A stretch of 64,000 nt of DNA from the NCBI GenBank assembly GCA_019347675.1, contig JAHWKW010000011.1:5198-69197 (forward strand), in the 5' to 3' direction. The position numbers and the translations under genes were made by a program. The notes under the pieces are model-generated. The model saw only the letters and a program-made list of their open reading frames with translations. It was not told where the DNA came from and did no database searches. The stretch is from Actinomycetota bacterium. Lineage in GTDB: Bacteria; Actinomycetota; Nitriliruptoria; Nitriliruptorales; JAHWKO01. Below are positions 6,138 to 50,364 of the stretch, piece after piece (the first letter of the stretch is position 1; each line of letters starts with the position of its first letter).

Positions 6138-6782
6138 TTACAGGCGCCCGACCAGCCCCAGCGGGTCGTCGACGACGGCGCTCGCACCCGCTCGCATCAG
6201 TTCAGAGTCCCCGAAGCCCCCGGTGCGCACCGCGATCGTGCGCACGCCCAAGCGGTACCCCGCTTCGGCGTCCCACGGGGAGTCGCCGACCAGGGTCGCC
6301 CGATCGGTGACGGCGTCCAGCTCCTCCAACGACGTCACGAGCAAGTCCGGAGCGGGTTTGGACGCGTGGACGTCGTCGGCGTCGGTGGTGGGCAGGTCCG
6401 GGCGGCCCAGCACCTCCATCAGCGCGGTTCGGACGGTCTCGCCCGCCGAGGTGGCGATCAGGAACGGGACCTCGCGGATCTGCAGGTCCTCCAACAGCTC
6501 CCGCGCCCCGCGGGTCGGACGCAGATCGTCAGCCATATCGAGGAAGCGGCTGCGGTGACCCTCCGAGATGGCCTCGGCCTCGTCGACGTGGCCTCCCAGG
6601 ACCCAGGTGACCAACCTGAGGCTGCCCATGCCGATCCCGGCGTGCAGTTGCCACAGCGGCACCCGGTGGCCGTGCTCGCGGAAGGCGGCGTCCCACGTCA
6701 CGACGTGCTGGTAGACCGAGTCGATCAGCGTCCCGTCGAGGTCGAGCAGCACAGCAGGTTCGGACACGACCACCTCCGCCAC
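6138..6782 (-). CDS. HAD-superfamily phosphatase (phosphoglycolate-phosphatase-like)
   Basis: HAD motif I is LLDLDGTLIDS and the C-terminal motif is VGDSPWDAEAG. The start is placed at GTG 6782 (VAEVVVSEPAVLLDLDG). The longer track ORF (to 6965) would overlap the metH start and adds an Arg-rich, non-coding-looking extension. Confidence 0.75.
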   Translation of the reverse strand: MAEVVVSEPAVLLDLDGTLIDSVYQHVVTWDAAFREHGHRVPLWQLHAGIGMGSLRLVTWVLGGHVDEAEAISEGHRSRFLDMADDLRPTRGARELLEDLQIREVPFLIATSAGETVRTALMEVLGRPDLPTTDADDVHASKPAPDLLVTSLEELDAVTDRATLVGDSPWDAEAGYRLGVRTIAVRTGGFGDSELMRAGASAVVDDPLGLVGRL

Positions 6783-6949
6783 ACGCAGGAAACCGACCGC
6801 CGGTCGGCGTGGCACGTCACTCAAGCAGGCCGACGTCAGCTGGGCACGTGACGCCCCCGACCATCGGGGTCGCAGCTGCCGGGTCGGGCAGGCGGTCAGC
6901 GGACACCGGCGACGTGTCCGCGCTGGAGCAGCGCGTACCCTTCCCGGCG

Positions 6950-11542: not shown

Positions 11543-11611
11543 TCGGACAGGGCGGCGTCGGTCGTTCGAACCGCGATAGCCTCACCCCTTCCGTCGTCGT
11601 GAAGGAGTTCG

Positions 11612-12487
11612 GTGCCGCGGGTCGTGGACATGCTGGCGCGCGGGCGGACGTTCTCGTTCGAGTTCTTCCCGCCGAAGACGGATGAGGGTGAGCGCAACCT
11701 CCGAGCGACCCTCGACGAGCTCGAGCCGCTGCGCCCGTCGTTCGTGTCCGTGACCTACGGGGCGGGAGGCTCGACCCGCGACCGCACCCACCGCATCGTG
11801 GTCGACATCCTCGAGCGCACCTCGATGACGCCGATGGCGCACCTGACGACGGTGGCGCACACCCGCGCCGAACTCAGCGACATCCTGCGCAGCTACCACG
11901 ACGCGAACGTCGAGAACGTCCTCGCCCTGCGCGGCGACCAGCCCCGCAACGTCGACCCCGACGACGTTGCCCCCAGCGAACTGCGCCACGCCGTCGACCT
12001 CGTCCGACTGGCGCGCGACGTCGGGGACTTCTCGGTGGGGGTGGCCGCCCATCCCGAGGGCCACCCCGAGTCCGACGGCGACCTGGAAAGCGACCGCCGG
12101 CACCTCGCAGCGAAGCTGCAGGAGGCCGACTTCGGCATCACCCAGTTCTTCTTCCGCGCCGACGACTACCTGGGGATGATCGACGATCTGGACCGTCTGG
12201 GGGTGGACCGGCCGGTGATCCCCGGGATCATGCCGGTGACCAACGTCGGTCAGGTGCAGCGGTTCGCCGAGCTGTCCGGGGCCGAGTTCCCCGCCGACCT
12301 CGCCGCACGGCTGCACGCCGTCGCCGACGATCCCGAGGAGGTGCGTCGCATCGGGGTCGAGGTGGCGACGGAGGTGTGCGACGAGCTGCTGGCGGCCGGG
12401 GCGCCGGGCTTGCACTTCTACACGCTCAACCGTTCGACCGCGACGCGGGAGATCTACGCCAACCTGGGACTCCCCGCGGTGTCCTGA
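11612..12487 (+). CDS. metF: Methylenetetrahydrofolate reductase
   Basis: Diagnostic N-terminus FSFEFFPPKTDEGERNL and SVTYGAGGSTR. There is a GAAGGAG ribosome-binding site upstream of the GTG start. Confidence 0.9.
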   Translation: MPRVVDMLARGRTFSFEFFPPKTDEGERNLRATLDELEPLRPSFVSVTYGAGGSTRDRTHRIVVDILERTSMTPMAHLTTVAHTRAELSDILRSYHDANVENVLALRGDQPRNVDPDDVAPSELRHAVDLVRLARDVGDFSVGVAAHPEGHPESDGDLESDRRHLAAKLQEADFGITQFFFRADDYLGMIDDLDRLGVDRPVIPGIMPVTNVGQVQRFAELSGAEFPADLAARLHAVADDPEEVRRIGVEVATEVCDELLAAGAPGLHFYTLNRSTATREIYANLGLPAVS

Positions 12488-17001: not shown

Positions 17002-19317
17002 TTAGTCGGTGTTGGCTCCCGGCGGGTGTCCGAGGTGGCTTTCGTCTCCGCCCGGACGGTCGAACAGCGTCGAGGTGTCGGTGGCACGGTCGCTCGTGGG
17101 CTCTCGCCGCCGAGGCTCGCGGCCGTGCCGTGCGGGCGGCGAAACCGGGCCGTTGGCATCGTTGGCGTGCCAGGCGGGACCTGGCGGCTGACCGTTCCCG
17201 GCGGGCGGCTTGACGCCAGCCGCACCAGGCCCGGCCGGCCGGTCGACGCCGTGGTGGGCATCCGCGGCGTCCGCCACCGCGGAGGACCGACCTGGGTCCG
17301 GCGGTCCGGGCAACCGGCTTGCCCAGTCGAGACGTCGAGCCGTCGCCGAGGTCTGGGCCTCGTCGTCGCCACGCCCCACCACGGCCGTCACCGCATGCTC
17401 CGCATCCGGCTGCGCATCGGGCACCGCAGCGGGTCGGCCTCCCGCCTCACGTCGTTCCCCGTCCGGCTGTGGCGGCGTCACCGCCGGCCCCGGCCGTGCG
17501 GGTGACGTCTCGTCGCGGTCGGGGTCGAGGGGGAAAGCAGGATCGTCCTGCGCTGGCGGTGCCGGCCGGGGATGCGGCGCGGACGGGGGGCTGGCCGGTT
17601 CGGAGGCACCGCCCGGCCGTGGCCGCGCCGGCGGACGGGCGGTGGTGAATTCGTCCTGGGCCGGACGGTAGTCCCCGTAGCCGTAGCCGTAGCCGTAGTA
17701 GTACCCGGGCTGGGTGGTGTCGATGTCGTTCAGGACGGTCCCGGCGACGGGCGTGCCGATGCTCTCGAGGCGCTCCACGGCGGCGCGGACGGCCCGTTGG
17801 TGCGAGCGGCGAGCGTTGACCACGAGCAGCGTCTGGGTCATCCCGGGGGTGAGTTCCAACGCGTCGGCGATGGCCAGCACCGGCGGCGTGTCGTAGATCA
17901 CCAGCTCGGCCAGCTCCGTCAGCTGGTGGCGCAGCGCGACCATCGCCGGGGACGCCAGCAGCTCGGCGGGGTTGGGTGGGATGTTCCCCGCCGGGATCAG
18001 CCGCAGGTTGGGCACCCCGACGTCGACGATCACGTCGCGCAGCTCCACCTCGCCGACCAGCAGGTCGGACAGTCCCGGGACACCGTCGACGCCGAGGGTC
18101 TTGTGCACGTTCGGCCGCCGCAGGTCGGCGTCGACGAGCAGGACGCGCGCGCCAGCCCGGGCGGCGGCGACCGCGAGGTTGGCCGCGGTGGTGGTCTTGC
18201 CTTCCTGAGCGGCTGGGCTGGTCACCGCGAGCGACCGCCCGACCGCCGCTCGGTCGGCGCCTGACGACGCCCCGCCCAGGACGAACCGGACGTTGGTGCG
18301 CAATGTGCGGTACGCCTCGGCTGCTGCCGACCACGGATCCAGGAGCGAGATCAACCGACCACGCTGCTCCGCCTCGGGCACGTGCGGGATACGCCCCAGT
18401 ACGGGCCGACCGGAAGCGCGGACGGCATCCTCCTCGGAGCGGATCGCGTCATCGAGGTGATCGCGGAGGAACGCCGCCCCCGTGCCCAGCATCAACCCGA
18501 GCACTACCGCCAGGATCCCGGTGCGGACCGGCTTCGGGGAGCTCGGCGACTGCGGGACGGCCGCCGGGACGATGACGCGACCACCGCCGCGGACGAACTC
18601 GTCGGTGGCTTCGAACGTCGTGGCCTGGGCGGTCACCTGTCCCAGCTGAGTGAGCAGGCTGTCGCGCTCCCGGCGCAGCACCTCGACGTCGCTGGCGTCG
18701 GTCGCAGCAGCGGTCGGCTCCGATCTCGCGTCGCCACGCGCCTCGCGGGTCGGGCTCGCCTCGGCAGCGGCGATCCGGTCGCCGAGCTCGTCGATGCGCT
18801 CGCGCAGACCCTCGGCCCGTTCCTCGAGGGCAGCGGTCGCGGCCAGGACCCGCTGCAGGCCGTTCTCACGGCGATCCTCGAGGTAGGCGTCGGCGAACGC
18901 CTGCGCGATCCCGGCGGCCGTCTCCGGATCGGTGTGGCTGGCGGTGATCTCCAGGATCTGCGTCTCGGTGAGCAGGTTGACCCGCAGGTGCTCCAGCAGC
19001 TCCTCTGGCGTGGCGTCCAGGCCGAGCTGTTCGACGACGCGCCCGGCCACCGGGGTGCTGCTGACGAGCTTGCGCTGGGTCTCCAGCTCCGTCTTACCGA
19101 ACAGGGCCTGCTCCAGGGCGGACTGCTCGGCCGAGCCCAGCGGCTCGACCACCAGCTCCACGGTGGACTCGTACACCGGGGTCTGCAGCAACGTCACGGC
19201 CATGGCGGCGACCACCACGATCCCCACGGTGGCGGCGATCAGCACCTTCTGGCGGCGCACGACAGCGAGGTAGTCGCGCAGATCCAGGGTGTCAGGTTCC
19301 AGCTCGTGGACAGGCAT
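17002..19317 (-). CDS. Polysaccharide co-polymerase / BY-tyrosine autokinase (Wzz-CpsD fusion)
   Basis: N-terminal Wzz chain-length domain with two TM segments and a coiled coil. The kinase P-loop is AAQEGKTTTAANLAVAAA, with Walker A' VLLVDADLRRP. The C-terminal Tyr cluster is YYYGYGYGYGDY, followed by a Pro-rich tail of about 220 aa. Confidence 0.9.
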   Translation of the reverse strand: MPVHELEPDTLDLRDYLAVVRRQKVLIAATVGIVVVAAMAVTLLQTPVYESTVELVVEPLGSAEQSALEQALFGKTELETQRKLVSSTPVAGRVVEQLGLDATPEELLEHLRVNLLTETQILEITASHTDPETAAGIAQAFADAYLEDRRENGLQRVLAATAALEERAEGLRERIDELGDRIAAAEASPTREARGDARSEPTAAATDASDVEVLRRERDSLLTQLGQVTAQATTFEATDEFVRGGGRVIVPAAVPQSPSSPKPVRTGILAVVLGLMLGTGAAFLRDHLDDAIRSEEDAVRASGRPVLGRIPHVPEAEQRGRLISLLDPWSAAAEAYRTLRTNVRFVLGGASSGADRAAVGRSLAVTSPAAQEGKTTTAANLAVAAARAGARVLLVDADLRRPNVHKTLGVDGVPGLSDLLVGEVELRDVIVDVGVPNLRLIPAGNIPPNPAELLASPAMVALRHQLTELAELVIYDTPPVLAIADALELTPGMTQTLLVVNARRSHQRAVRAAVERLESIGTPVAGTVLNDIDTTQPGYYYGYGYGYGDYRPAQDEFTTARPPARPRPGGASEPASPPSAPHPRPAPPAQDDPAFPLDPDRDETSPARPGPAVTPPQPDGERREAGGRPAAVPDAQPDAEHAVTAVVGRGDDEAQTSATARRLDWASRLPGPPDPGRSSAVADAADAHHGVDRPAGPGAAGVKPPAGNGQPPGPAWHANDANGPVSPPARHGREPRRREPTSDRATDTSTLFDRPGGDESHLGHPPGANTD

Positions 19318-19531
19318 CGATCCCCCGCGGTGCTTACGACGGCGGCCGATCGTACCCGCCAGTCGCCATGTGGGGCGAGACGTGCGCGCCGACGCGCCCC
19401 GGTCGGTCGCCGGTGGGCACGCCGGGCGAACGCGACGAACCGTGCGAGCTGCGGAGCCTTTACTTGTGTCGACGCCAGGTCTATGTTCCGCGCCTCACGC
19501 GTCGCGGAACGCATCGAACGAGGGGTGGGGC

Positions 19532-21175
19532 ATGATCGCAGTTCGGCACGGCTCGAGACGGGTCGCTGCGCTGGTCGCGGCGCTGGCACTGGCGGTCTCC
19601 GGGCTCGCCGCCGCGCCCGCCGGCGCGGCGGAGGCCGACCTTGTCGCTGATCGTCTCGCGCTCACCCGAGCGGCGCGGGCCGCCACCGGTAGCGGGATCG
19701 CGGCGATGCAGGCCCAGCAGCTTCAGCCCCCGCCGCAGCAGCCGGGGACCTCCGTCTGCTTGGGTGACGCCGCCGGTGACACCAAGCGGATGACGACCGG
19801 CGGGTCACCCACCGACCCGGCCGCGACGCCGGAGGACAAGCCGCAAGCCGACATCACGCGCTTCTGCGTCAACTTCGGCCAGTCGCTGGGCCTCACGGTC
19901 ACCACCAGGCAGCTGACCAACCCGCTGGCCGACCCCAACTGGGGGAACGCCACGTTCATCGGCTGGTTCCTCGACATCGACGATGACGGTGACGGCGACT
20001 TCTTCGTCGACTACAGCCTCGACGCCGACGCGCAGCTGACGGCGATCGTGTACGACGTGCGGGGTGGCCAGCCGGTCGAGAGCTGCGCCGCCACCGCGGC
20101 GTTCACCGACCGCCACTCGGTGAGCGACGTGCGCCGCAGCTGCATCGGCGACGCTGAGTCGGTCCGGGCCAGCGTCGCGGTGTTCTACGACGAGAACATC
20201 GACGACGACATCGCGCACAGCGACGTCGCGCCCGACGGCGGGGCGTTCAGCCAGTCCGTCGCCACGCAGCCCCGCGACAAGGGCCGTCACGGCGGGCTGG
20301 AGCGTATGGAGACGTCGGTCAGGATCTCGCAGGCGCGGTTCCCCAACCCGGCGGACGTCAGCCACGTCTACCTCGCCCGCCAGGACCTGTTCGCCGACGC
20401 GGTGGCCGGAGGAGTGCTCACCCGTGGCCCGATCCTGCTGGTGCCCAACTGCGGCGACGTGCTGCAGGTCACCCGCGACGAGATCAGCCGGGTGAACCCC
20501 ACCATCGTGTACGCGCTGGGCGGCAGGCAGGCGATCTGCGACGCGACGCTCCAGCAGGCCGCCGGCGGGCGGCCCACCGCCAGGATCGCCGGGACCGGCC
20601 GGGTCGAGACCGCCGTCGAGATCTCGAAGTTCCAGTTCCCCGACGCCGCCGACGTCACCGACGTGTACCTGGCCCGCGCTGACCTGTTCGTCGACGCGGT
20701 GGTGGGCGGCATCCTCACCCGCGGACCGATCCTGCTGGTCGGCTCGTGCGAAGCGGTCCCCACCGTGGTCCGCAACGAGATCGCCCGGACCCAACCGCAG
20801 CAGGTCGCGGCGCTCGGCGGGACGGCGGCGGTGTGCGAACAGGTGTTGCGGGAGGCCGCCGGTGAGCGGCCCACGCTGCGCCTGGGCGGCACCGGCCGGG
20901 CCCAGACCGCGATCCAGATCAGCCGGTACCAGTTCCCCGGCACCGCCGCCACCGCCTACCTCAGCCGAGCCGACCTCTTCGCTGACGCCGTGGTGGGCGG
21001 GATCCTGATCGACGGTCCGATCCTGCTGGTGCCCAACTGCGTCGCGCCGCCGGATCAGCCGTTCCCGGGTGACGTGCGGGCGGAGATCAGCCGACTGTCG
21101 CCGAGCAGGGTGGTCGCGCTCGGCGGCGTGCGAGCCGTGTGCGAAGCGGTCCTGGACGCGGCGAAGGCAGCGTGA
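19532..21175 (+). CDS. Secreted protein with three cell-wall-binding (CW_binding_2-type) repeats
   Basis: The start is moved to ATG 19532, giving a signal peptide (MIAVRHGSRRVAALVAALALAVSGLAAAPAGAAEA). The C-terminal half has three repeats of about 95 aa (..RMETSVRISQARFP..VYLARQDLFADAVAGGVLTRGPILLV.., ..GRVETAVEISKFQFP.., ..GRAQTAIQISRYQFP..). Confidence 0.8.
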   Translation: MIAVRHGSRRVAALVAALALAVSGLAAAPAGAAEADLVADRLALTRAARAATGSGIAAMQAQQLQPPPQQPGTSVCLGDAAGDTKRMTTGGSPTDPAATPEDKPQADITRFCVNFGQSLGLTVTTRQLTNPLADPNWGNATFIGWFLDIDDDGDGDFFVDYSLDADAQLTAIVYDVRGGQPVESCAATAAFTDRHSVSDVRRSCIGDAESVRASVAVFYDENIDDDIAHSDVAPDGGAFSQSVATQPRDKGRHGGLERMETSVRISQARFPNPADVSHVYLARQDLFADAVAGGVLTRGPILLVPNCGDVLQVTRDEISRVNPTIVYALGGRQAICDATLQQAAGGRPTARIAGTGRVETAVEISKFQFPDAADVTDVYLARADLFVDAVVGGILTRGPILLVGSCEAVPTVVRNEIARTQPQQVAALGGTAAVCEQVLREAAGERPTLRLGGTGRAQTAIQISRYQFPGTAATAYLSRADLFADAVVGGILIDGPILLVPNCVAPPDQPFPGDVRAEISRLSPSRVVALGGVRAVCEAVLDAAKAA

Positions 21176-21777: not shown

Positions 21778-21826
21778 ACCTCCACCGCGACGCACGACCG
21801 CCGGCTGGATCCGGCGGGGACGAGCA

Positions 21827-21855
21827 GCGGGGCGGGGATCAGATCCCCGCCCCGC
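21827..21855. terminator. GC-rich palindromic hairpin between convergent genes
   Basis: gcggggcggggatc-a-gatccccgccccgc is a near-perfect 14-bp inverted repeat. It lies in the 102-nt gap between the plus-strand gene ending at 21777 and grdA ending at 21880. There is no clear U-tract. Confidence 0.55.
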
Positions 21856-21879
21856 TCGCCGTCTGAACCGGTCAGCCGG

Positions 21880-22338
21880 TCAGCCGGCCTTCTCACGCAT
21901 CGCCGCCACCGCCTCGCTGAGCGCCTCCGGGTCGAGCGCCTCGGCCATCAGGCCGATGTGCTCCTCCCACGCGTCGTCGGGGATGGCGTCCTTCACCTCG
22001 TCCTCCAGGACGTGGTACACGGTGAGGCCCAACTGGGCCTCGGCCAGAGGACCGGCGTAGCTGGGATCGCCGAGAACGACCGTCTCGGCAGCGATCTCGG
22101 CGCTCTCGGGGTCAGGCGCCCCGAGGATGACGAGCAGGTTGTCGGTGCCGTGCTCGTCCGCCAAGTTCTTGATCGCTTCCTGGCTATCCAGGTCCATGGC
22201 CCCCGCCGCCGTTCAGACGAAGCACTCGGTGGCGGTGAACGCCACGTCGCCTCCGGCCTCCTTCACACAGGCTTCGATGGCGGGGCCGGCGACACCGTCG
22301 CGCTCACCGATCACGATCACTTGTTTCCCGTCGAACAT
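21880..22338 (-). CDS. grdA: Glycine/sarcosine/betaine reductase complex selenoprotein A (in-frame TGA = Sec at 22213-22215)
   Basis: Joining the tail of track ORF 22213-22644 (MFDGKQVIVIGERDGVAGPAIEACVKEAGGDVAFTATECFV) through TGA to TAAGAMDLDSQEAIKNLADEHG... (ORF 21880-22197) reproduces the GrdA redox motif CFVU-TAAGAMDL. There is a GGAGGGA ribosome-binding site before ATG 22338. Confidence 0.9.
22179..22192 (-). promoter_or_regulatory. Candidate SECIS hairpin for grdA
   Basis: On the mRNA, 20 nt after the UGA, lies CCUGG-AUAG-CCAGG. The stem is short, so this is tentative. Confidence 0.3.
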
Positions 22339-22388
22339 GTTCCCTCCTTGACGTCCGTTGCTCCCCGTCGGTCGTTCACCCTCCGGCC

Positions 22389-22721
22389 TCAGGTCAGTTG
22401 CTCCAACTCCTCGTTCAGCCACTCCTTGAAGCGTGGCGGCCCGAGGTCGGGGTCGGAGATCCGCGAGACCTCCTCGCCGTCCTGGAACAGGAGGAAGGTC
22501 GGCAGGCCCATCACCTGGTGGTCCATGCACCACCGCCGGTTGTCGTCTGCCTTGACCTTCGCGACCTTCAGGTCGTCCCGCTCCTCGGCGATCTCCTCGA
22601 CGTGGGGCTCGAGCTGCAAGCACGGCTGACAGTCCGGACCCCACACGTCCACCAGCACCAGGCCATCGGACACGATCTCGTCGAAGTTGTCGCTGTTGGC
22701 CTCGATCACTGCCTCAGCCAC
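22389..22721 (-). CDS. Thioredoxin-family protein (atypical CQPC active site)
   Basis: Thioredoxin fold signature LVDVWGPDCQPC ... GLPTFLLFQDGEEV. It is embedded between grdC and grdA, as thioredoxins are in known grd operons. Confidence 0.85.
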   Translation of the reverse strand: MAEAVIEANSDNFDEIVSDGLVLVDVWGPDCQPCLQLEPHVEEIAEERDDLKVAKVKADDNRRWCMDHQVMGLPTFLLFQDGEEVSRISDPDLGPPRFKEWLNEELEQLT

Positions 22722-22723
22722 GT

Positions 22724-24160
22724 CTAGCTCCTTTCTGCGTTGCGTTCCAGAAGCACGCTCATCCCGTCCGAGCTCTGGCTCATCCGCCCGAGGAACAAGC
22801 TGCCCTTGGCCATCAAAAGTACCCGCTCGGCGTCACCGTCGGTCAGCCGGGGTAACGCATGTGGCAGGTAGCACAGGGCCGAGGCGAGGTGACCCTGGCT
22901 CGGGGCGAAGCCTGGCATGCCGCGCTCAGCCACGAACTCGTCGATCTGGTCGCGGTCGATCTCGCCGCGGCGGGCGGCCAACGCCCCCAGGGTGCGGTAG
23001 TTGCGGGTGGCGACGTCTCCCGACCCTTGCGGCTCCATGATCTCGGGGTTGTGCAGCTCGGTGCCGTAGTCGTCGATGTCGAGCATCTTCAGGCCGGCCA
23101 CCTCGAGGGGGCCGATCGCGAGGTCCTGCAGGATCTGGGGGTTGGACCCCCCGGAGCTGACGCGGTGGCGACCGACGGCGTCGAGGCGGATCCGCGGGGA
23201 CGCGCCGTCGTCGGCCTCGACCAGGACGGCGGTGCCGCCGATGACGTCCTCCAGGACCGGAAGGTCGTTCTTCAACCCGCCCTGGAACTTCATCCCGAGC
23301 TTGGCCTGCGACCCGCCCGCGATGATCGCCACGCGGCGGAACACCCCCGCCACCACCAGGCTGGCAGCCACGACCAGCGCCGGGATCGGCGCCGCGCAGA
23401 AGTTCTTCACGTCGAACCCCGACGCATCGGTCAGTCCCGCGACACCGGCGATCGCCTTGGCCATGTTCCCGCCGCCGCGCTGGTAACGGTCCCCCACCGC
23501 CTCCTCAGAGCAGGTCAGCGTGTACTGGATCGAGGACGGGTCGATGTCGTGGTCGTCGAGCAGGTGCAGCAAGGCCAGGGTCCCGGTCGCCTTGACCGTG
23601 AGGTTCTCCAGGAGGACGGGCGCTGCCAGGGACTCGTCGACGTCATGCGCGCGGCGGATCGCGGCGACGACCCGGTCACCTTCGACGTGCACGGCGACGG
23701 CGCCGGACTGGTCGACGGCGGCATCCAGGTCCCCGGCGGCGTCGGTGATCTTGTCCAGATCGATGCCCTTGGCCAGCGGGTGCTCGCCCAGCTTCGCAGC
23801 GGTCTGCTCGGCGAAGTCCGGATCGAGGGTGATCAGGTCGAACTCGTCGACGGCAGCCATCAGCCCGATGAACTCGTCCTCGGGCATCAGCTCACCGCGG
23901 GGCGCGAAGCGTCCCGCGTCCTCATCGGGGTTGCTCACCCACGGGCGCTCGGGGAGCTCGCGGGGGTGAAGGGCACCCAGGTAGGCATGGTGCGGCCGGT
24001 AGGCAACGGCCTCCTCGAAGGTGCGCAGGCTGGCGAAGAACTTCTCGCGCAGCTGCTCGTCCTTGGGCAGCTCCCGCCGCGGTTTCGACCCGTGGCGGAC
24101 CAGCCCGGGGGTGTGCGCCAGCACGGTGGTAGCCGCAGAGATGACGGCTGAATCACTCAT
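22724..24160 (-). CDS. grdC: Glycine reductase complex component C, beta subunit
   Basis: Matches remembered GrdC blocks: VLAHTPGLVRHG, RRAHDVDESL, CSEEAVGDRYQRGGGNMAKA, AGGSQAKLGMK and KGSLFLGRMS. Confidence 0.85.
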   Translation of the reverse strand: MSDSAVISAATTVLAHTPGLVRHGSKPRRELPKDEQLREKFFASLRTFEEAVAYRPHHAYLGALHPRELPERPWVSNPDEDAGRFAPRGELMPEDEFIGLMAAVDEFDLITLDPDFAEQTAAKLGEHPLAKGIDLDKITDAAGDLDAAVDQSGAVAVHVEGDRVVAAIRRAHDVDESLAAPVLLENLTVKATGTLALLHLLDDHDIDPSSIQYTLTCSEEAVGDRYQRGGGNMAKAIAGVAGLTDASGFDVKNFCAAPIPALVVAASLVVAGVFRRVAIIAGGSQAKLGMKFQGGLKNDLPVLEDVIGGTAVLVEADDGASPRIRLDAVGRHRVSSGGSNPQILQDLAIGPLEVAGLKMLDIDDYGTELHNPEIMEPQGSGDVATRNYRTLGALAARRGEIDRDQIDEFVAERGMPGFAPSQGHLASALCYLPHALPRLTDGDAERVLLMAKGSLFLGRMSQSSDGMSVLLERNAERS

Positions 24161-25481
24161 CGTCGTCGCCTTCCTCGCCGTCCATGGAGAACACGGTCGG
24201 TCGTTTCACGGGCGTCGAGACGGCCTCCAGTGCGCGCTCCAACACCCGCCGCCGGTACGCCCGTTCCGCGTCGGGTTCCAGCTCCGGGTCGCCGACCGGG
24301 TGAGGGATCGCACGCCCCGGCACGATCCTGGGAGCACCCACTTTCTCAGCGATCGAGACCAGGTTGGTGATGACCGCGGTCGGGATCCCCGACCGCTCCA
24401 GCTCCTTCGCAAGCGTTGTCCCGCAACGCGTGCCCGTCCCTCAGGTTGCGGTGAGGATCGCGGCTTGCACGTTGGCCTGGTGCAGCTCGGAGGCCCACTC
24501 CACCCCGAAGCTACGCGCGGTCGCAACCGGCGTGCCGTTCCCGATCGTCACCAGGTACTGGTCGTGCAGCTTCCCGATCACCCCGTCGCGTTCGAGCTCG
24601 CGGGCCATGTCCACCGGCAGGATCCGGTTGGGGTCCTCATCGGCTGCGACCGTCGAGAAGCCCCCGTCGACCGACTCGTACTCGCCGGACTCCAGCGAAT
24701 CCGTCCCGTCGAGGGGGTAGCGCAGCCACTTGTTCGCCCGCGACGACGGCAGGCCGTCGGGGTTGCCTGCGGGGACGACCGCTCCTTCGGTGACCAGCGC
24801 CAGGATCACCTCGGACAGATCCTCGACGGGACCGGCGGGAGTCACCATGTCGAACTTAGGAGCGGGGATCTCGGTGGCGTCCTCCTCGCCGGACAGCCGG
24901 CGCAGCAGGAGGTCGAGCGCGCGTTCCGCGGCCCGCTCCTCGACGACCGTGTTCTCCCGCGCGACCCGACCGACCCGGCCATCGTCGGACGTGATCGTCT
25001 CGTCCGCGGCGAGCTTCTTCACCGCCGGAGCCAGCCGCTCGAGCGAGTCGCGCATGTCGCGCGACGTGCTGCCGCTGGCGATCACCGGTGCTGGTGCAGC
25101 TTCGTCCACACCCGGGTTGTCCTCGTGCATGGCGGCGATCGCCGGCAGGCCTGCCTCCGTCGCGGCGGCGGCCAGTCGGGCGCAGGCGAAGCCGTAGCGT
25201 CCGCTGCCGAACGCCGGACCGGCCACGAGCAGGCCGCCGTCGGTTCCCTGGGCCAGCTCCAGGATCTCGTCGATCGCGTCCTCTTCCTGAGTCGCGTAGT
25301 CGTCGCCGCAGACGACCGTCGCGACGATCTCGAAGTCATCGCCGAGCAGCTTGGCCAGAAGGTTGCCCGGGCCGACCGGCCCCTCACGCGCCTCCGGGGG
25401 CGTGTCGGCGACCTCTTCGCGCCCCACGCCCGCGTAGAACTGGTTGATGTAGTGGACGATGCGGGTCGGTTCGTCAGCCAT
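24153..25481 (-). CDS. grdB: Glycine/betaine reductase component B selenoprotein subunit (in-frame TGA = Sec at 24441-24443)
   Basis: N-terminus RIVHYINQFYAGVGREE..GPAFGSGRYG. ORF 24441-25535 ends ...AAILTAT-TGA. Reading through gives U-GTGTRCGTTLAKELERSGIPTAVITNLVSIAEKVGAPRIVPGRAIPHPVGDP, joining ORF 24153-24341. This is the GrdB/F/H UxxCxxC region. The start at ATG 25481 overlaps the grdE stop (TGATG). Confidence 0.9.
24413..24429 (-). promoter_or_regulatory. Candidate SECIS hairpin for grdB
   Basis: On the mRNA, 11 nt after the UGA, lies GCGUUG-CGGGA-CAACGC: a 6-bp perfect stem with a G-rich 5-nt loop. This is the position expected for a bacterial SECIS. Confidence 0.45.
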
Positions 25482-26713
25482 CACGCAGCCTCCCGGCAGG
25501 TCAGGTGCCCCCACCCCAGCGGGTTCAGGGCGCACAGGATCACGGCCACGGGGACCTCCACCTCGGCGGTGGCGTCTGCGTCGGCGTCGTGGAGCCGGTC
25601 ACCACCGAGCGCGCGCTCCACCGCCGGCAGCGACACCTGCTCGTCGTAGTTGCCCAGCGACACCATCGTGGCGTCGCTCCGCGGAGGGGAAACCACGGGC
25701 GTGCCCGTGCCCCCGGGCCCCGACATCTCCGCGAACAGGCCCGCGGTGGGGATGCCGTAGTCGGCCAGTGCGTCGATCTTCAGCGACAGGTCGTTATCGG
25801 CGTTCCCGCCACCCTCCTTGGTGATCACCACGGCGTCGAACCCCGCGACCCGGCACAGGTCAGCCGCGCGGGCCGAGATGTGCTCCTTGGCGCCTTGCTG
25901 GACGGGCTCGGGCGACAGCACCAGCCCCGCGAACGCCAGGTCGCCGCCGTGGCGGCGGCGCAGTGCCGCCACCACCGGGTTGTTGGCGTGCATGTAGCTC
26001 GGGTTGCGCAGCGCCGGATGGCCGTACTGGCCGCTGACCACGATGCCGTCGTCGAGCTCGTCGGGATCGACCAGCGTGGGCAGGCAGTTCGCGAGCGTCT
26101 TGCCGTAGACGAAGACGTCCTTGAAGGAGCCCTGGGTCTGCAGGTTGATGATCGCCCCGACCCGCGGCAGGTCACCGACCGGTCCCGGAGCGGGCGGCTC
26201 CTCGACCGTGTCGGGTTCCGCCTCCAGCGCCGCGTCTCCCAGATGGGCCGCCAGGCGGAGCAGCCCCCGGCGGATCGCGTCATCGACCGCCTCCCAGCTG
26301 GCGTCGTCGGCTTTCTCGAACTCGACGACGATGTTGTGCGTCGAACCGAACGGGGACAGGTCGGACGCCGGGCCCGACATGTCGATCAGGCCCTCCTCGA
26401 GCCGCGGGAGGAAGCCGGCAGCCAGGACGGCGGCGCCGCGAAGGACGTGGGTCTCCTCGCCGCGGGGCTGGTCGACATCCGCGAGCCACCCCGGGTAGAT
26501 CCCCCCACCGCCGGGTCCCTTGCTCCGCGGTTCGACGACGTCGAGGGGCTTGACGATCCGGACGCTGTCGCCCGGCGATGTCACCGACACGCGCACTTGA
26601 CCGAGCGCCGGGTGGGCCACGATGTCTTGGGCTTCGTCCCGGGACACGGTCAGGCGCCCGTCGCTGTAGCTGGTCGCGTCCCCGAGCTCCACCTCGCGGA
26701 CGTTGTGGATCAT
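25481..26713 (-). CDS. grdE: Component B alpha/beta proprotein-like subunit (GrdE/GrdI family)
   Basis: Start at ATG 26713 (MIHNVREVELGD...). Family blocks: SPGDSVRIVKPLDVVEPRSKGPGGGGIYPG, THVLRGAAV, INLQTQG, NPSYMHANNP and ITKEGGGNADNDL. See the findings for the missing canonical Asn-Cys processing site. Confidence 0.8.
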   Translation of the reverse strand: MIHNVREVELGDATSYSDGRLTVSRDEAQDIVAHPALGQVRVSVTSPGDSVRIVKPLDVVEPRSKGPGGGGIYPGWLADVDQPRGEETHVLRGAAVLAAGFLPRLEEGLIDMSGPASDLSPFGSTHNIVVEFEKADDASWEAVDDAIRRGLLRLAAHLGDAALEAEPDTVEEPPAPGPVGDLPRVGAIINLQTQGSFKDVFVYGKTLANCLPTLVDPDELDDGIVVSGQYGHPALRNPSYMHANNPVVAALRRRHGGDLAFAGLVLSPEPVQQGAKEHISARAADLCRVAGFDAVVITKEGGGNADNDLSLKIDALADYGIPTAGLFAEMSGPGGTGTPVVSPPRSDATMVSLGNYDEQVSLPAVERALGGDRLHDADADATAEVEVPVAVILCALNPLGWGHLTCREAA

Positions 26714-26999
26714 CCGCTGCAGTCCCGCCACTGGTCCCTCCGGTCGTCGCAGGCTCCGCTGGAGGTTCGGTCCCTCGAGCACACTCCACCGTAACGCTGC
26801 GACCCCATCACGCACCGGCCACCCGCTCCGGTCATCCGTCCGGAGCCGTACTGACCCCCGGCACGCGGTCGCACGTCAACGCCCAGTTACACTGATTTCC
26901 GACATTATCGGTAAAGGCGACGCCGGGAGCTGCCGAGGTGGTCCGCAAGTTCGAGGAGGATCCCGTGACGGGACGTTCACCGGGTACAGATACCACAGC

Positions 27000-28124
27000 A
27001 TGAACACCGTCTTGATCGTCGACGACAGCGCCAGGGACCGTGCGTCCCTGGCCACGCTGCTGGGCCGTCACGGCGACCATCTCGTCCTGGAGGCCTCCAA
27101 CGGGGCGGAAGGACTCGGCCTCGCTCGCGTGGAGCGGCCGCACCTGATCGTGACCGATGTCATCCTGCCCAAGGTCAACGGCTACGAGCTGATCCGGGAG
27201 TTGCGCGCAGACGAGGTCACCGCAGCGATCCCCATCGTCGTCTACGCGGCCGACTACGTCAGGGCAGAGACGCGCGACCTCGTGGCGGCGTACGGCGTCA
27301 CGAGCTTCATCAGCAAGCCAGCCGAGGAACGCACCGTCCTGGCCAGCGTCGAAGCAGCGTTGGCCGAGCCACGCCCGACGGCCTGCCGGTCCGACCCGTC
27401 GGTCGACCGCCAGCAGGTCAGGTTGCTGAGCGAGAGGCTGCTCGAGCGGGTGCGCGAACTCGAGCTCGCCAACCTGCACCAGGAGACGCTGCTGACCTCG
27501 ACCCTGCGTGTCCAGGACGAGGAGCGCGAGCGGATCGCGTGCGACATCCACGATGACTCGATCCAGGCGATGACAGCCGCCGCTATGCGTCTGGGAGTCC
27601 TCGAACGGCACCTGAACGGTCCCGAAGGCCGCGAGCGGTTGAAGGCTGTGGAAGGCACCGTCCGCGAAGCGATCGCACGGCTGCGCCACCTGCTGTTCCA
27701 GCTGCGACCGCCCGAGCTCGACGAGCATGGGCTCGCCACCGCGCTGGACAGCTACCTCTCCCACGTGGCCGATGACGTCGGCTACCGCTACGAACTCGAG
27801 AACCTCCTCGAGAGCGAACCGAGGATCGAGACCCGACTCGCCCTGTACCGGGTCGCTCAGGAGGCCCTGTTCAACGTCGCCAAGCACGCTGGCGCATCGC
27901 GGGTGCATGTCGTGCTGAGCGAACGCGACGATGGCTACGCGATCCGGATCCGGGACGACGGCGTGGGCTTCGATGTCGCAGCGCAGGGACGGTCGCGTCC
28001 CGGGCACCTCGGTCTCTCGTCGATCCGCCACCGGGCCGAACTGGCGGGCGGCACCTGCCGCATCGAGAGCCGTCCGGGGGCGGGGACCACCGTCGATGTC
28101 TGGATCCCGGGGACAGCTGGGTGA
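27000..28124 (+). CDS. Hybrid receiver / HisKA_3 histidine kinase
   Basis: Start at ATG 27000. REC domain (VLIVDDSARDR..LIVTDVILPKVNG), coiled coil, NarX-type H-box CDIHDDSIQ, and an ATPase domain (VAKHAGAS, IRIRDDGVGF, GLSSIRHRAELAGG). Confidence 0.85.
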   Translation: MNTVLIVDDSARDRASLATLLGRHGDHLVLEASNGAEGLGLARVERPHLIVTDVILPKVNGYELIRELRADEVTAAIPIVVYAADYVRAETRDLVAAYGVTSFISKPAEERTVLASVEAALAEPRPTACRSDPSVDRQQVRLLSERLLERVRELELANLHQETLLTSTLRVQDEERERIACDIHDDSIQAMTAAAMRLGVLERHLNGPEGRERLKAVEGTVREAIARLRHLLFQLRPPELDEHGLATALDSYLSHVADDVGYRYELENLLESEPRIETRLALYRVAQEALFNVAKHAGASRVHVVLSERDDGYAIRIRDDGVGFDVAAQGRSRPGHLGLSSIRHRAELAGGTCRIESRPGAGTTVDVWIPGTAG

Positions 28125-29326
28125 CGGCGTCACGCATCAGGATCCTCGTCGCGGATGACCAGGTCTCGGTCCGAGCGGCGCTGATCGAGGTGCTGTTCGA
28201 CGACGGCGGCTTCGAGGTGGTGGCCGCCGTCGGGGACGCCGACGCTGCGGTTGCGGCCGCGCGCGACGAGCAGCCCGACATTGCGGTCCTCGACGTCCGC
28301 ATGCCTGGCTCAGGCGTGGCAGCGGCCGGCGGGATCCGGGCCGTCTCGCCTGACACACGGATGGTCGCGTTCTCGGCGCACCAGGACCGCCTCTCGATCA
28401 TGGAGATGCTCCGTGCCGGCGTGGTGGGCTACCTCGTCAAGGGGACACCCAACGATGAGATCCTCGCTGGCCTGCGCCGCGCGGCCGAAGGACTGGTGAT
28501 CCTTCCGCAGGAGGTCGCTGCGCAGTTCATGGACGAGTTCACCGCCCACGTGCAACAGAACCACCGTGCCAACCGGCTACGGCGGGAGAGGGAGCAGCGG
28601 ATCCGGCAGGTCCTGCTCAGCCGGAGGGTGGAGCTGGCCCTCCAGCCGATCTTCGACTTCAGAGCGCGGACCGTGGCCGGATACGAGGCGTTCGCCCGGT
28701 TCCCTCAGGAACCGCGACGCGGACCAGCCGCCTGGTTCGCCGAGGCGCGCTCCGTCGGGCTCCAACTGGACTTGGAGCTCCTCGCCGCCCGGGTGGCTAT
28801 CGCTGCCCAACCGAGGCTGCCGGATGGGACGTTCCTTGCCCTCAACGCCTCACCGAGTACCGCCGCCAACGACGCCTTCCACGCGGCTGTCCTTGGCGCC
28901 ACGCCGCAGCGCACGGTGGTGGAGATCACCGAGCGGACCCGTGTGTTCGACCAGGATCGTCTCAACCGTAACCTCGAGCCGCTGCGATCCGCGGGCGTCC
29001 GGATCGCGCTCGACGACGCAGGAGCGGGGTTCGCGAGCCTCCGCCACCTGGTCCAGCTGGGACCCGACATGATCAAGCTCGACGTCGCGCTGACGCGGGA
29101 GGTTCACAGCGACCGGGCCCGTCGGGCGCTGGCTCGGGCGATCGTCTCGTTCGCGGCGGAGACGGACGCATCGATCGTTGCGGAGGGGATCGAGCTGGGC
29201 GCCCAGCTGCGGACCTTGCACGACCTGGGGGTGGGCTACGGCCAGGGCAACCTGCTGGCCGCTCCTGCCGTGCTCGATGAGCTTCTGGCCGCTCACCCGA
29301 GCATGCCTCAGGTGCCGGGGGGGTGA
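28121..29326 (+). CDS. Response-regulator receiver fused to an EAL c-di-GMP phosphodiesterase
   Basis: The GTG start overlaps the upstream stop. REC domain (ILVADDQVSVR..IAVLDVRMPG). EAL domain (GYEAFARF, VVEITE, ALDDAGAGFASLRHL, IKLD, AEGIE, GYGQGN). Confidence 0.85.
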   Translation: MTASRIRILVADDQVSVRAALIEVLFDDGGFEVVAAVGDADAAVAAARDEQPDIAVLDVRMPGSGVAAAGGIRAVSPDTRMVAFSAHQDRLSIMEMLRAGVVGYLVKGTPNDEILAGLRRAAEGLVILPQEVAAQFMDEFTAHVQQNHRANRLRREREQRIRQVLLSRRVELALQPIFDFRARTVAGYEAFARFPQEPRRGPAAWFAEARSVGLQLDLELLAARVAIAAQPRLPDGTFLALNASPSTAANDAFHAAVLGATPQRTVVEITERTRVFDQDRLNRNLEPLRSAGVRIALDDAGAGFASLRHLVQLGPDMIKLDVALTREVHSDRARRALARAIVSFAAETDASIVAEGIELGAQLRTLHDLGVGYGQGNLLAAPAVLDELLAAHPSMPQVPGG

Positions 29327-29952
29327 ATGATCCCCTCTCGGACGGCCCGGGTCACCGCCTCGAGCTTCGAGTGCGCCTCAAGCTTCCTGAGGATGCTCTG
29401 GATGTGGTTGCGGACGGTGTTCACGCTGACGAAGAGCTGTTCGGCGATGTCCCGTGTCGAACGCCCCGCCGCCACGAGCCGCAGGACCTCCAGTTCACGT
29501 GGGCTCAAGGCCGCCGGACCGCGGCGGGTGGTGTGCAACCGCGGAAGCAGTCTCGCCAGCAGTGACGGGGGGATCGTGGCCTGTCCGGCGTGGGCGGCCC
29601 GGACGGCGGCCACGACATCCTCGGCCGCCATGTCCTTGGTGACGTAGCCGGAGCAGCCGGCCTCGACCGCAGCGGCCAGCACGGCGTCGTGGGCCGAGGC
29701 GGTCACCATGACGACCGACGTATCCGGCAGGTCACGTCTGATGTGGGCGGCGGCCTCGGCCCCGTCCCCGTCGGGCAGGCGGTAGTCCATCAGCACGACG
29801 TCGGGTCGGTGACGGATCGCCGCGATGCGCGTCTCCGCCACCGTCCGGACGTGTCCGACGACCTCGATGTCGTCCTCGGCCCCCAGGACCTCGGTCATGC
29901 CCTGGGCGACCATCACGTGGTCCTCGACGATCATCACCCGGATTATCCCCAT
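29308..29952 (-). CDS. NarL/LuxR-family response regulator
   Basis: REC domain (VMIVEDHVMV..VVLMDYRLPDGDG) plus a LuxR helix-turn-helix (LSPRELEVLRLVAAGRSTRDIAEQLFVSVNTVRNHIQSILRKL). Confidence 0.9.
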   Translation of the reverse strand: MGIIRVMIVEDHVMVAQGMTEVLGAEDDIEVVGHVRTVAETRIAAIRHRPDVVLMDYRLPDGDGAEAAAHIRRDLPDTSVVMVTASAHDAVLAAAVEAGCSGYVTKDMAAEDVVAAVRAAHAGQATIPPSLLARLLPRLHTTRRGPAALSPRELEVLRLVAAGRSTRDIAEQLFVSVNTVRNHIQSILRKLEAHSKLEAVTRAVREGIIHPPGT

Positions 29953-30159
29953 CGGCCCGGATCGTACCGATCCACGGCATCCGCCGGGCCGATCACGTGC
30001 GAACCCCTGTGTCCCGACGGCCCTCCCGGGACAGCGCCCGCCGTCGGTCCACCCCGGGCTAGTCCAACTTGCCTAGTCCCGGGTTGAGCAACGTGCGTCT
30101 GCCAGGGCCCGCTGCCAACGACGACCTCTCCGGTCGTACGCCCACAACCGGAGAGATCG

Positions 30160-31791
30160 ATGCAGACCACCACCGCCCCCACAACCGTCTCCACCAACGT
30201 CACCCCTCGCACGAAACTGATCCGTCGCCTGGGCCGCAGCGCCATCGTGGCGGCCGCGACGTCCACCACCATCGCGGTCGCCGCTGTGCCCGCGCTGGCG
30301 GCACCGACGATCGACCGCTGGACACCGCCCGCGCGCACGCACAACGCCGACTTCGTCACCACCGACGTGCCCTGGTCCGACGGGGTCGTCACCTCAGCGG
30401 TGATCCCGGCCGAACAGCTGCCGCTGAGCATGGTGGTGGAGAGCGAGGTCGCCGATCGCCTCGGCCTCGACCGGATCCGTCAGGGCATCGAAGGCTGGAA
30501 CGGCATCCCCGGCTCGCGCTTCGGCGCACGTGTCGCCGGCGTGGTGAACACCGGCGCGCGCAGCGCCCAGAACGACGGCGTGCACCGGGTGTTCGTCGAC
30601 GGCCGCTGCCAGGGCGACGAGTTGGCCTGGGGCTACCTCAACGGGATCCGCGCCGAACGTCGGTACGGGACCAACGGCAGCTACACGATCGACGGCGACA
30701 TCGGGGTCTGCTCACGCCTGCTGAACAGCCCGGACAAGACCGCGTCGACGCTCCGCCACGAGCTGGGTCACCTGCTGGGACTCGGCCACATCGACGCGTC
30801 CTGCCGGATCATGTCCGCCCGCCACGACTCGTGCGAGTCGATGACCGCAGGCGACCACAACGCTGTCCGCTACCTGTACTCGACCCTGCCGCGTCTGGCC
30901 GGACCCACCCGCACCGAGACGGCAGCCCGCACCGTGTACGCCACCCGCCCGGGTGCCAACGCTGTCGCGACCGTCGTCTTGGCCGACGGCTTCGGTGGGT
31001 CGGCCCTGCCGGTCGCCGCAGCCGCGTACGCAGGCGCGATCGACGCCCCGCTGCTGCTGGGCGACGCCAGCTGCACGTCAGGTTCCGTCGGGACGGAACT
31101 GCGCCGCGTGGCGCGGCCTGGAGCGACTGTCGCGCTGGTCGGTGCGGCCGTGGCCGGCTGCTCGACAGACGTGCGATCCCAGGGGTACAAGCCGGTCGTG
31201 CTCGGGGATGTCGCGGCGGTCGCTGACCAGCTGGCCGCCGCCCGCCGGTCCGACACCCTCTTCGTCGTCCGCGGTCCGTTGGGTGACGGCAACCTGCCCG
31301 ACGGTCTGACGGCCGCGGCCGCCGCCGGACGGCTCGGCGCACCGGTGCTGTTCACCAACGGTGGGCAGCTGGCGTCCGAGACCACGTCCTTCCTCAACCG
31401 GCATCCGCTGGTTCGGCGCGCGGTCATCGTCGGTGGCGAGCAAGCCGTGCCCCAGTCGGTGGTCGACGAGCTCAACCGGCGTGGCATCACCAGCACCCGC
31501 CACGGCGGTCAGGACCGGATCACCACCGCCCTGGCGGTCGCCGACATCCCCGGCGCCTTCGCACCGCGATCAGCCGTGGCCGTGGCCGCTACGGACAAGT
31601 GGGCCGACGCCATCTCGGGTTCCGCGATCGGCGCAGCGCGTGGCTGGCCAGTGCTGCTCACCCCACCACACGAGCTCGACGGGCGGGTGGCTGGCTTCCT
31701 CGCCCACAGGGCGACCGGCGGCTACATCCTGGGAGGCCACGCCGCCGTGTCGGACGCCGTCCACATCGGGGCCTCAGCCCAGGTCCGTTAG
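30160..31791 (+). CDS. Secreted metzincin-type zinc protease fused to cell-wall-binding repeats
   Basis: Signal peptide (IVAAATSTTIAVAAVPALAAP). Zinc site LRHELGHLLGLGH (HExxHxxGxxH). The C-terminal half has three CW_binding_2-like repeats (RLAGPTRTETAAR.., ..VLFTNGGQL.., RHGGQDRITTALAVA..GWPVLLT). Confidence 0.75.
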   Translation: MQTTTAPTTVSTNVTPRTKLIRRLGRSAIVAAATSTTIAVAAVPALAAPTIDRWTPPARTHNADFVTTDVPWSDGVVTSAVIPAEQLPLSMVVESEVADRLGLDRIRQGIEGWNGIPGSRFGARVAGVVNTGARSAQNDGVHRVFVDGRCQGDELAWGYLNGIRAERRYGTNGSYTIDGDIGVCSRLLNSPDKTASTLRHELGHLLGLGHIDASCRIMSARHDSCESMTAGDHNAVRYLYSTLPRLAGPTRTETAARTVYATRPGANAVATVVLADGFGGSALPVAAAAYAGAIDAPLLLGDASCTSGSVGTELRRVARPGATVALVGAAVAGCSTDVRSQGYKPVVLGDVAAVADQLAAARRSDTLFVVRGPLGDGNLPDGLTAAAAAGRLGAPVLFTNGGQLASETTSFLNRHPLVRRAVIVGGEQAVPQSVVDELNRRGITSTRHGGQDRITTALAVADIPGAFAPRSAVAVAATDKWADAISGSAIGAARGWPVLLTPPHELDGRVAGFLAHRATGGYILGGHAAVSDAVHIGASAQVR

Positions 31792-40224: not shown

Positions 40225-40455
40225 CGCGGACGGGGCACCATGCCGGTGCGGGACCCGCCGCGTTCTGCCATCTTCGGCCTCTTCGATCGCTGATCGACAA
40301 GCAGCCAACCCCGCGAGCGTGCGATCCGCGGATCTCGGCGACGTCTTTGGCACCAGCGAGGCTAGCGGCAGCCGCCAGGCTGCTCGCCGAGTCGCCGTCG
40401 AAGAGGGACCACTCCGCGGGTACGGTGCCGCCGGGCTCGCCTCGGGGGGACAGCA

Positions 40456-50265: not shown

Positions 50266-50364
50266 CGCTTCTCCGGTCTGCTCATCCGCAGTGACCCCCG
50301 GTCTGCCGTGATCGGAGAGGACCTGGCGTCGTGGCGCGTGTACCCGGATCCACGGTGAGGAAGC

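Follow-up and report, generated by a model that had tools for sequence, protein, structure and literature searches.

In the 64,000-nucleotide (nt) stretch of DNA analysed here (hereafter the window), an intact operon of five genes is predicted from sequence comparison, with a probability of about 0.8, to encode a selenocysteine (Sec)-dependent, thioredoxin-driven reductase of the glycine/sarcosine/betaine reductase (Grd) family that belongs to a distinct actinobacterial clade. Five co-directional minus-strand genes were located within the region 21880-26815 using the reading frames of the window and family models, and two of them, grdA and a grdB-like gene, contain an in-frame UGA at the position of a Sec residue. 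The assignment to a Sec-dependent operon of this family, made in a preliminary description of this DNA, was upheld; GrdA and GrdC scored above their cut-offs, and the selenoprotein B model was passed. The features are listed below in window coordinates.

21880-26731, minus strand (read from 26731 to 21880): operon of five co-directional genes in the order grdE-like, grdB-like, grdC, trxA, grdA.
25481-26731, minus strand: grdE-like gene for the substrate-binding alpha subunit of the B component, apparently not a proprotein (PF09338, Gly_reductase, 310.8 bits).
24153-25481, minus strand: grdB-like gene for selenoprotein B, 442 codons, of which codon 347 specifies Sec (TIGR01918, PF07355).
22724-24160, minus strand: grdC for the beta subunit of protein C, similar to 3-oxoacyl-acyl carrier protein synthase III (NF040746, PF19364), with Cys255 and a clade-specific Cys430.
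22389-22721, minus strand: trxA for the operon thioredoxin, active site WGPD-CQPC (PF00085, 68 bits).
21880-22338, minus strand: grdA for selenoprotein A, 152 codons, of which codon 42 specifies the Sec of a C-F-V-U motif (NF040748, PF04723).
24441-24443, minus strand: in-frame UGA of grdB (Sec347), ...AAILTAT-U-GTGTRCGTTLAKELE..., motif TAT-U-GTGTRC (UxxGxxC).
22213-22215, minus strand: in-frame UGA of grdA (Sec42), ...TECFV-U-TAAGAMDL....

The grdE-like stop codon shares one base with the grdB ATG (TGATG), the end of grdB and the beginning of grdC overlap by 8 nt, trxA begins 2 nt past grdC, and the ribosome-binding site AAGGAGGG lies 5′ of the grdA ATG. This gene packing is that of translational coupling, and the operon is intact. 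For the grdE-like gene, GTG at 26731 is a likelier start than ATG at 26713 and gives a product of 416 amino acids (aa); GGAGGG is located 5′ of this GTG, and a call of 416 aa was found in an independent Logan assembly (SRR15827330, L081). The end coordinate of 26713 given earlier corresponds to the ATG, and the probable GTG start extends the gene 18 nt further.

Related loci were collected by a scan with GrdC of one genome per species of the Genome Taxonomy Database (GTDB), which yielded 80 loci, 55 from Actinomycetota and 25 from other bacteria. The Sec codons and GrdC were readable in 54 actinobacterial loci and the GrdE-like protein in 45, and the outgroups provided 25 GrdC and 14 GrdB sequences. 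Read-through translation (window:21877-22338(-) for grdA and window:24150-25535(-) for grdB) placed the TGA codons exactly where they had been claimed, at 22213-22215 and 24441-24443, and the read-through products matched their reference families (GrdA, NF040748, 209.6 bits with a cut-off of 130, and PF04723, 204 bits; selenoprotein B, TIGR01918, 433.8 bits with a cut-off of 65, and PF07355, 384 bits). Both codons also coincide with known Sec sites, as had been proposed: ECFV-U of grdA is the CxxU motif, and the grdB TGA aligns with the Sec of the outgroups.

At both sites TGA was present in 54/54 actinobacterial loci, with no TAA, TAG, Cys or other sense codon, and when all compared sequences including outgroups were counted, it occupied the Sec site in 72/72 grdA and 58/58 grdB sequences. 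The Cys codons of relatives that the preliminary description had considered as a sign of pseudogenes were accordingly found in none of them. Alignments by tblastn crossed both stops unbroken in the 55 actinobacterial loci, and frame and amino-acid sequence 3′ of both TGAs were conserved in 54 loci from four classes. Within the window TGA is also the commonest ordinary stop (24/39 genes), so a global reassignment of the code does not apply. Because only TGA occurs at these sites and the downstream frame is conserved in 54 loci, chance and decay are excluded; the pattern lies far beyond chance, and both TGAs are read as genuine Sec codons.

The two genes are hidden from open reading frame (ORF) callers by the UGA, as the preliminary description had stated. 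The GenBank entry MBW3577822.1 holds just the N-terminal 346 aa of the window GrdB, identical in sequence and cut at the UGA, and the nearest database GrdB homologues are nearly all annotated with 341-346 aa, i.e. as proteins ended at the UGA. GenBank and IMG annotation of these fragments is generic or inconsistent, either "glycine reductase" or "betaine reductase".

Hairpins following the two UGAs were evaluated as Sec insertion sequences (SECIS) on comparative evidence, because their folding energies were not significant.

24413-24429, minus strand: probable SECIS core of grdB, loop CGGGA closed by the 6-bp stem GCGUUG/CAACGC, 11 nt past the UGA.
22179-22192, minus strand: weak SECIS candidate of grdA, CCUGG-AUAG-CCAGG, 20 nt past the UGA, present in the centroid structure.

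In grdB, the third positions of codons +4 to +9 (ACG CGT TGC GGG NCA ACG) were invariant in 54/54 loci. These frozen codons include CGT and NCA, which are normally avoided at high guanine-plus-cytosine (GC) content, and the four-fold sites on either side of the hairpin show three or four different bases each. Clostridia, Symbiobacteriaceae and Synergistota retain this hairpin as well, and two compensatory exchanges of G-C for U-A affect its basal pair. In the window its sequence matches exactly at this one place, and a search for a second copy gave just a chance-level match with three mismatches (42880-42898). The hairpin at 24413-24429 is the probable SECIS of grdB, as judged from these comparisons. 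For the grdB region the folding energy gave z = -0.7 (core) and +0.5 (60 nt), values that are not significant at 70% GC.

The grdA hairpin at 22179-22192 had 76% of cells paired over 28 sequences, which equals shuffled controls, and A- or T-ending codons persist in its loop (T at +9 in 37/54, A at +12 in 36/54). RNAalifold preferred another grdA fold, 22192-22218, which spans the UGA and includes an upper stem of 3 bp that shows some U-A/C-G covariation. The preliminary description had placed a stem-loop after each UGA; this holds for grdB (GCGUUG-CGGGA-CAACGC, 11 nt, with comparative support) and is not established for grdA. Its ranking of the grdB stem-loop as the stronger of the two agrees with frozen codons in 54/54 loci as against grdA pairing no better than shuffles. 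The check by RNA folding that it had suggested gave energies that single out neither hairpin at 70% GC (z-scores from -0.6 to +0.5).

Genes for Sec decoding, among them the selB and tRNA-Sec that the preliminary description had asked for, adjoin the operon in relatives. In 16 Thermoleophilia loci, tRNA-SeC(UCA), selA, selB and selD were detected by ARAGORN and tblastn directly upstream of grdE in divergent orientation (selD: TIGR00476, 393 bits), and selB was detected at one Pseudonocardiaceae locus. The operon clade thus co-occurs with Sec decoding in these 16 loci. There, the operon together with selD, selC, selA and selB would be a self-contained selenium island, and because the sel genes stand beside the operon, Thermoleophilia may keep the whole Sec trait for this one enzyme. 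The loci with the sel cluster are L013 (3720-3810, 3837-4910), L022, L025, L027, L030, L032, L035-L037, L040, L042-L044, L046, L049 and L059; L036 has two tRNA-SeC calls (2618-2706 and 3315-3405).

The GrdE-like protein passes the Pfam model only; its best NCBIfam match is GrdG (NF040793) with 218 bits against a cut-off of 780, and FarE (NF053623) reached 121.5 against 675. At the place where canonical GrdE has SGN-C-VSA-C-DKN, the window protein has SGQYGHPALRNP, and SGQ[YF]GHP[ASG]L[KR]NPT, which contains no Cys, occupies this autoprocessing site in 45/45 readable actinobacterial GrdE-like proteins. Autoprocessing of GrdE, by which the pyruvoyl group arises, requires its two conserved Cys, and the subunits GrdI (betaine) and FarE (fluoroacetate), which lack them, are not proproteins (PMC10838667). 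In Synergistota (L064), a GrdH-type selenoprotein has a partner that is also without the Cys pair. The Asn-Cys of "LANC" in the window GrdE-like protein was considered as a cleavage site and rejected, being unconserved in relatives and misaligned with the canonical site.

The GrdB-like protein falls outside all three curated substrate classes, with nearly equal scores that are all below cut-off (GrdB, TIGR01917, 406/602; GrdF, NF040794, 433/800; GrdH, NF040795, 381/775). After Sec, 54/54 actinobacterial proteins have UxxGxxC and 14/14 outgroup copies have UxxCxxC (TST-U-GTCTRC). The CxxC that follows Sec has been described as Sec-protecting (PMC10838667). With respect to the published GrdB signature (PMC9751293), the clade has GPAF[GT]SGRYG for GPxF[NF]AGRYG and V[HD]GGFST for AHGGxD[QTAP], and it keeps the TxGNGTxV block; the GrdF motif blocks IHGGYDR...TTGTGT are lacking in the GrdB-like protein. 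The identification as a canonical glycine reductase was not sustained, the GrdE Cys pair being absent, the GrdB-like protein lying below the GrdB, GrdF and GrdH cut-offs, and the published motif having failed. For the same reasons the Stickland-type metabolism put forward earlier gained no specific support.

GrdC scored 556.3 bits with NF040746 (cut-off 450) and also matched PF19364 and, weakly, ACP_syn_III. Its Cys255 (KNFCAAP) is invariant in actinobacterial and outgroup sequences. Cys430 is invariant in 54/54 actinobacterial sequences, where it lies in QGH[LI]AS[AS][LV]-C-Y, and is replaced by Pro in 25/25 outgroups, the classical type being TQGHIPSG[VI]P. In Peptoclostridium (Eubacterium) acidaminophilum, the acetyl-phosphate-forming subunit is GrdD, which has an active-site cysteine. 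No grdD (PF02504) was detected by tblastn in the window, where the best E was 0.2, or in the 55 actinobacterial loci. It directly follows grdC in 24/25 non-actinobacterial loci, and in the exception the contig ends 91 bp past grdC.

A GrdD profile was then run against 1.84 billion cluster representatives, of which 133 matched at E<1e-30; the family is small, so the 150 representatives listed cover it. They were ranked by GC-rich amino-acid composition, and six of the highest-ranked were looked up. Three are located on 64% GC contigs directly after a classical Pro-type GrdC, one belongs to a classical grdX-trxB-trxA-grdE-grdA-grdB...grdD cluster, and two lie at contig edges beside a ferredoxin gene, with no readable GrdC. 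None of the six has the actinobacterial arrangement, no actinobacterial-type GrdD lineage was found, and a protein search for an actinobacterial GrdD returned classical systems. Every fusion or run-on call of GrdC with GrdD carries TQGHIPSG[VI]P, and the data split perfectly into Pro-type GrdC with GrdD and Cys430-type GrdC without it. In a Symbiobacteriaceae metagenome-assembled genome (MAG; L056, 7962-10550), grdC and grdD are fused in one ORF of 862 aa, and similar fusions occur among the database representatives (P0245, P0268, P0270, P0272).

The best NCBIfam match of the operon thioredoxin is the clostridial-type TrxA, with 82.9 bits against a cut-off of 140. Nearly every actinobacterial copy has C-[QRKH]-P-C as its active site, and outgroup copies mostly have CGPC or CVPC. 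Neither trxB nor grdX is present in the operon, and trxB was not found in the whole window; it may be a housekeeping gene elsewhere. The reductase had been called complete-looking, which does not apply, as grdD and trxB are missing from the operon and from the whole window. No solved homologue of GrdC or GrdE was found in the PDB by sequence.

These subunit data bear on an alternative in which the operon would encode an ordinary clostridial-type glycine reductase of Stickland metabolism that forms acetyl phosphate, with grdD, trxB and the Sec genes elsewhere in the genome. Full-length GrdA and GrdC above equivalog cut-offs, the retained TxGNGTxV block and the IMG label "glycine reductase" on many close homologues would all fit it, as would the fact that the comparison covered the window and the loci, not whole genomes. 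It is nevertheless unlikely, because the pyruvoyl-forming Cys pair is missing from all 45 GrdE-like proteins, the TIGR01917 score stays at 406 against 602 bits with the GPxF[NF]AGRYG and AHGGxD blocks failed, and grdD is unlinked in 55/55 loci, whereas it is adjacent in 24/25 classical ones and has no actinobacterial-type lineage.

For the distinct Sec-dependent, thioredoxin-driven reductase preferred here, the following relay may be drawn from established glycine reductase chemistry. The B component would bind a carboxymethyl compound, X-CH2-COO-, and Sec347 of the GrdB-like protein would displace X and become Se-carboxymethylated. The carboxymethyl group would then move to Sec42 of GrdA, and reductive cleavage by GrdC would yield an acetyl thioester, with Cys39 and Sec42 of GrdA left joined as a selenosulfide, after which the operon thioredoxin would re-reduce GrdA. 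Since a pyruvoyl carbonyl is not possible, the substrate is likelier to be one that needs no Schiff base; glycine betaine, which would yield trimethylamine, is the best candidate, ahead of free glycine, which is less likely. In a system that lacks GrdD, GrdC itself would probably carry the acetyl group, with Cys430 as the candidate thiol, and its release as acetyl phosphate, acetyl-CoA or acetate is a matter of speculation. The fuller proposal, namely a GrdD-independent selenoenzyme with a non-glycine substrate, in which Cys430 of GrdC takes the acetyl group and releases it otherwise than as acetyl phosphate (e.g. as acetyl-CoA), and which is part of a selenium island in Thermoleophilia, is tentative and is held with clearly less than even confidence.

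Several points weigh against the Sec-dependent reductase and its proposed substrate. In the window, selA and selB were absent by tblastn, selD was not among the Pfam-annotated genes, and no tRNA-Sec was present, the sole ARAGORN call being a tRNA-Ala; for this MAG, we infer Sec decoding from its relatives. The carriers are MAGs without exception, and the whole case is built on sequence. The minimum free energy z-scores of neither post-UGA region were significant in this GC-rich sequence, and a SECIS of grdA is not demonstrated, with two weak candidates. The GrdE-like protein could in principle form a pyruvoyl group from another residue, and grdD, trxB and a transporter could be elsewhere in the genome. 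With regard to betaine, the GrdB-like protein is no closer to GrdH (381) than to GrdF (433) or GrdB (406), and no betaine transporter or trimethylamine gene is linked to the operon in the window or the loci. The GrdH score is the lowest of the three substrate models, and with NF040795 the N-terminal part alone of the GrdH-type protein of L064 scored 498 bits, versus 284 bits for the window protein. The tRNA-Ala call (83 nt, anticodon AGC, window 58-140) lies inside an ABC-transporter permease ORF (3-1238) and may be false, given its odd length and anticodon.

The absence of Sec machinery from the window, the hairpin energies without significance and the 346-aa GrdB part given by gene callers and GenBank would also be expected if the TGAs were true stops, the genes being split or decaying pseudogenes or functional selenium-free truncated proteins. 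This is highly improbable, because downstream frame and sequence are conserved in 54 loci of four classes, the codon is always TGA exactly at the catalytic Sec position, synonymous sites are frozen across the grdB hairpin, selD, selC, selA and selB adjoin the operon in relatives, and the C-terminal fragments lack a start codon context of their own. Variant UGA-decoding tRNAs occur in other bacteria, and no Sec genes of this genome lie within the sequence analysed, but recoding to Cys or another amino acid by such a tRNA is equally improbable, since canonical tRNA-SeC(UCA) with selA, selB and selD stands beside the operon in 16 relatives, the SECIS-like grdB hairpin is common to proven Sec-using lineages, and no Cys homologues of GrdA are known (PMC1794560).

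The Sec-dependent reductase favoured here is not confined to this genome. Its gene order, E-B-C-trx-A, was the same in 55/55 actinobacterial loci, and GrdC identity to the window protein was 83% in Nitriliruptorales, approximately 70% in Pseudonocardiaceae and Mycobacteriales, 68% in Acidimicrobiales and 62-67% in Thermoleophilia (Solirubrobacteraceae, Thermoleophilaceae and Gaiellales). The operon occurs in at least 55 GTDB species representatives of four classes, Nitriliruptoria, Actinomycetes, Thermoleophilia and Acidimicrobiia, and the earlier view that it is unusual for Actinomycetota was dropped on this ground. The recognition of the host as a high-GC actinobacterium was correct: GC is 67-73% across the window, with composition unbroken at the operon, and the closest GrdC relatives are in Nitriliruptorales. 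As far as seen, the clade is confined to uncultured Actinomycetota. Neighbours that might hint at the substrate or at a substitute for GrdD were limited to the sel genes in Thermoleophilia and a major facilitator superfamily (MFS) transporter in Pseudonocardiaceae. The MFS-type gene (about 570 aa) is convergent and directly after grdA in L005, L007-L010 and L051 and is the only recurrent transporter neighbour. Some Solirubrobacteraceae-type loci have an extra 0.5-0.7 kb between grdB and grdC (L018, L019 (7300-8000), L034, L035).

Full-text literature searches returned no description of actinobacterial or grdD-less Grd clusters. Under "Actinobacteria", Zhang et al. (2006) listed GrdA and GrdB for Symbiobacterium only (PMC1794560), and the Symbiobacteriaceae loci of the present scan are of the classical type with a GrdC-GrdD fusion. 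The GrdB signature that served Nobu et al. (2022; PMC9751293) as a filter is one that the actinobacterial clade fails.

Compared with the glycine reductase of P. acidaminophilum and Clostridium sticklandii, the actinobacterial system has the same CxxU in GrdA, the same Sec position in selenoprotein B, a similar grdB SECIS hairpin, GrdC and an operon-encoded thioredoxin, and presumably the same carboxymethyl-selenoether relay. It differs in the order E-B-C-trx-A, in the absence of grdD, trxB and grdX, in a GrdE-like protein without the NC...C autoprocessing site and hence without pyruvoyl, in the motifs UxxGxxC, GPAF[GT]SGRYG and V[HD]GGFST, and in its host, a high-GC Actinomycetota MAG; GrdC identity between the actinobacterial and classical types is 38-45%. 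Betaine reductase (GrdH/GrdI) likewise uses GrdA and protein C and has an alpha subunit that lacks the Cys pair and is not a proprotein; for Actinomycetota of soil or saline habitats, the osmolyte betaine would make a plausible substrate. However, the Cys-pair region is QYGHPALRNP here and SFMPTSSKIS in the betaine reductase type, NF040795 gave 381 against its cut-off of 775, and neither opuD nor a betaine/choline/carnitine transporter gene is linked.

FarB/FarE of Cloacibacillus porcorum (PMC10838667) also has an alpha subunit without the autoprocessing Cys and a degraded CxxC after Sec, and it sets a precedent for diversification of the family to non-amine substrates. FarB, however, is without both Cys of the CxxC, whereas the window GrdB-like protein has lost the first only; the FarE model gave 121 bits versus 675, no farA or farC is adjacent, and Far relies on GrdC and GrdD of its host. 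D-Proline reductase is more remote: PrdA and PrdB show distant homology to both B-type subunits and PrdB has Sec, but the scores were 72 bits versus 300 for PrdB and 31 versus 700 for PrdA, and the enzyme works without GrdA and GrdC.

In textbooks, Grd enzymes serve as markers of organisms that ferment amino acids under strictly anaerobic conditions, and the cultured relatives of these Actinomycetota lineages are mostly aerobic. The operon, in at least 55 species-level lineages, would extend Sec-dependent reductive chemistry to soil and saline habitats. Glycine reductase surveys based on motifs and gene callers that truncate at UGA would systematically miss the clade. Which parts of the classical mechanism are indispensable could be tested on this clade, in which the pyruvoyl site, one Cys of the CxxC and GrdD have been lost naturally. 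Should glycine betaine be the substrate, trimethylamine would be formed from a major osmolyte by bacteria not so far recognised as its source. On the sequences compared, this Grd variant is widespread in uncultured Actinomycetota, mechanistically informative and undescribed in the literature searched.

The following feature was found 3′ of the operon.

21819-21863, no strand assigned: inverted repeat of two 22-nt arms that are 86% complementary and 1 nt apart, 3′ of grdA and between convergent genes.

This repeat is probably a transcription stop hairpin without a U tract. A consensus scan of the region for promoters and terminators gave no match, and an Rfam search of the window at the gathering threshold gave none either. 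Divergent from the grdE-like gene are genes for a hybrid response regulator/histidine kinase (26703-28124), a receiver-EAL protein (28121-29326) and a LuxR-type response regulator (29308-29952), which are possible local regulators; their homologues were found in few relatives and do not adjoin the operon there. Large secreted proteins with CWB2 repeats (PF04122) are encoded on both sides of the operon region (19289-21175 and 30088-31791); this cell-wall-binding domain is best known in clostridial surface-layer proteins. One-carbon metabolism is represented, at a distance of 10-15 kb from the operon, by the genes for MetH (B12-dependent methionine synthase, 6620-10546) and methylenetetrahydrofolate reductase (11603-12487); any link to grd would be conjectural. 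A fused PUA/ATP sulfurylase/adenosine 5′-phosphosulfate (APS) kinase gene for sulfate activation is located at 40366-42201; sulfate-activation enzymes of the ATP sulfurylase/APS kinase kind also handle selenate. Farther along (50000-61100), the minus strand carries a phage-tail-like/extracellular contractile injection system cluster, which includes genes for baseplate J (51856-54909), a VgrG/gpD-like hub (55257-57257) and a tail sheath (59124-60395).

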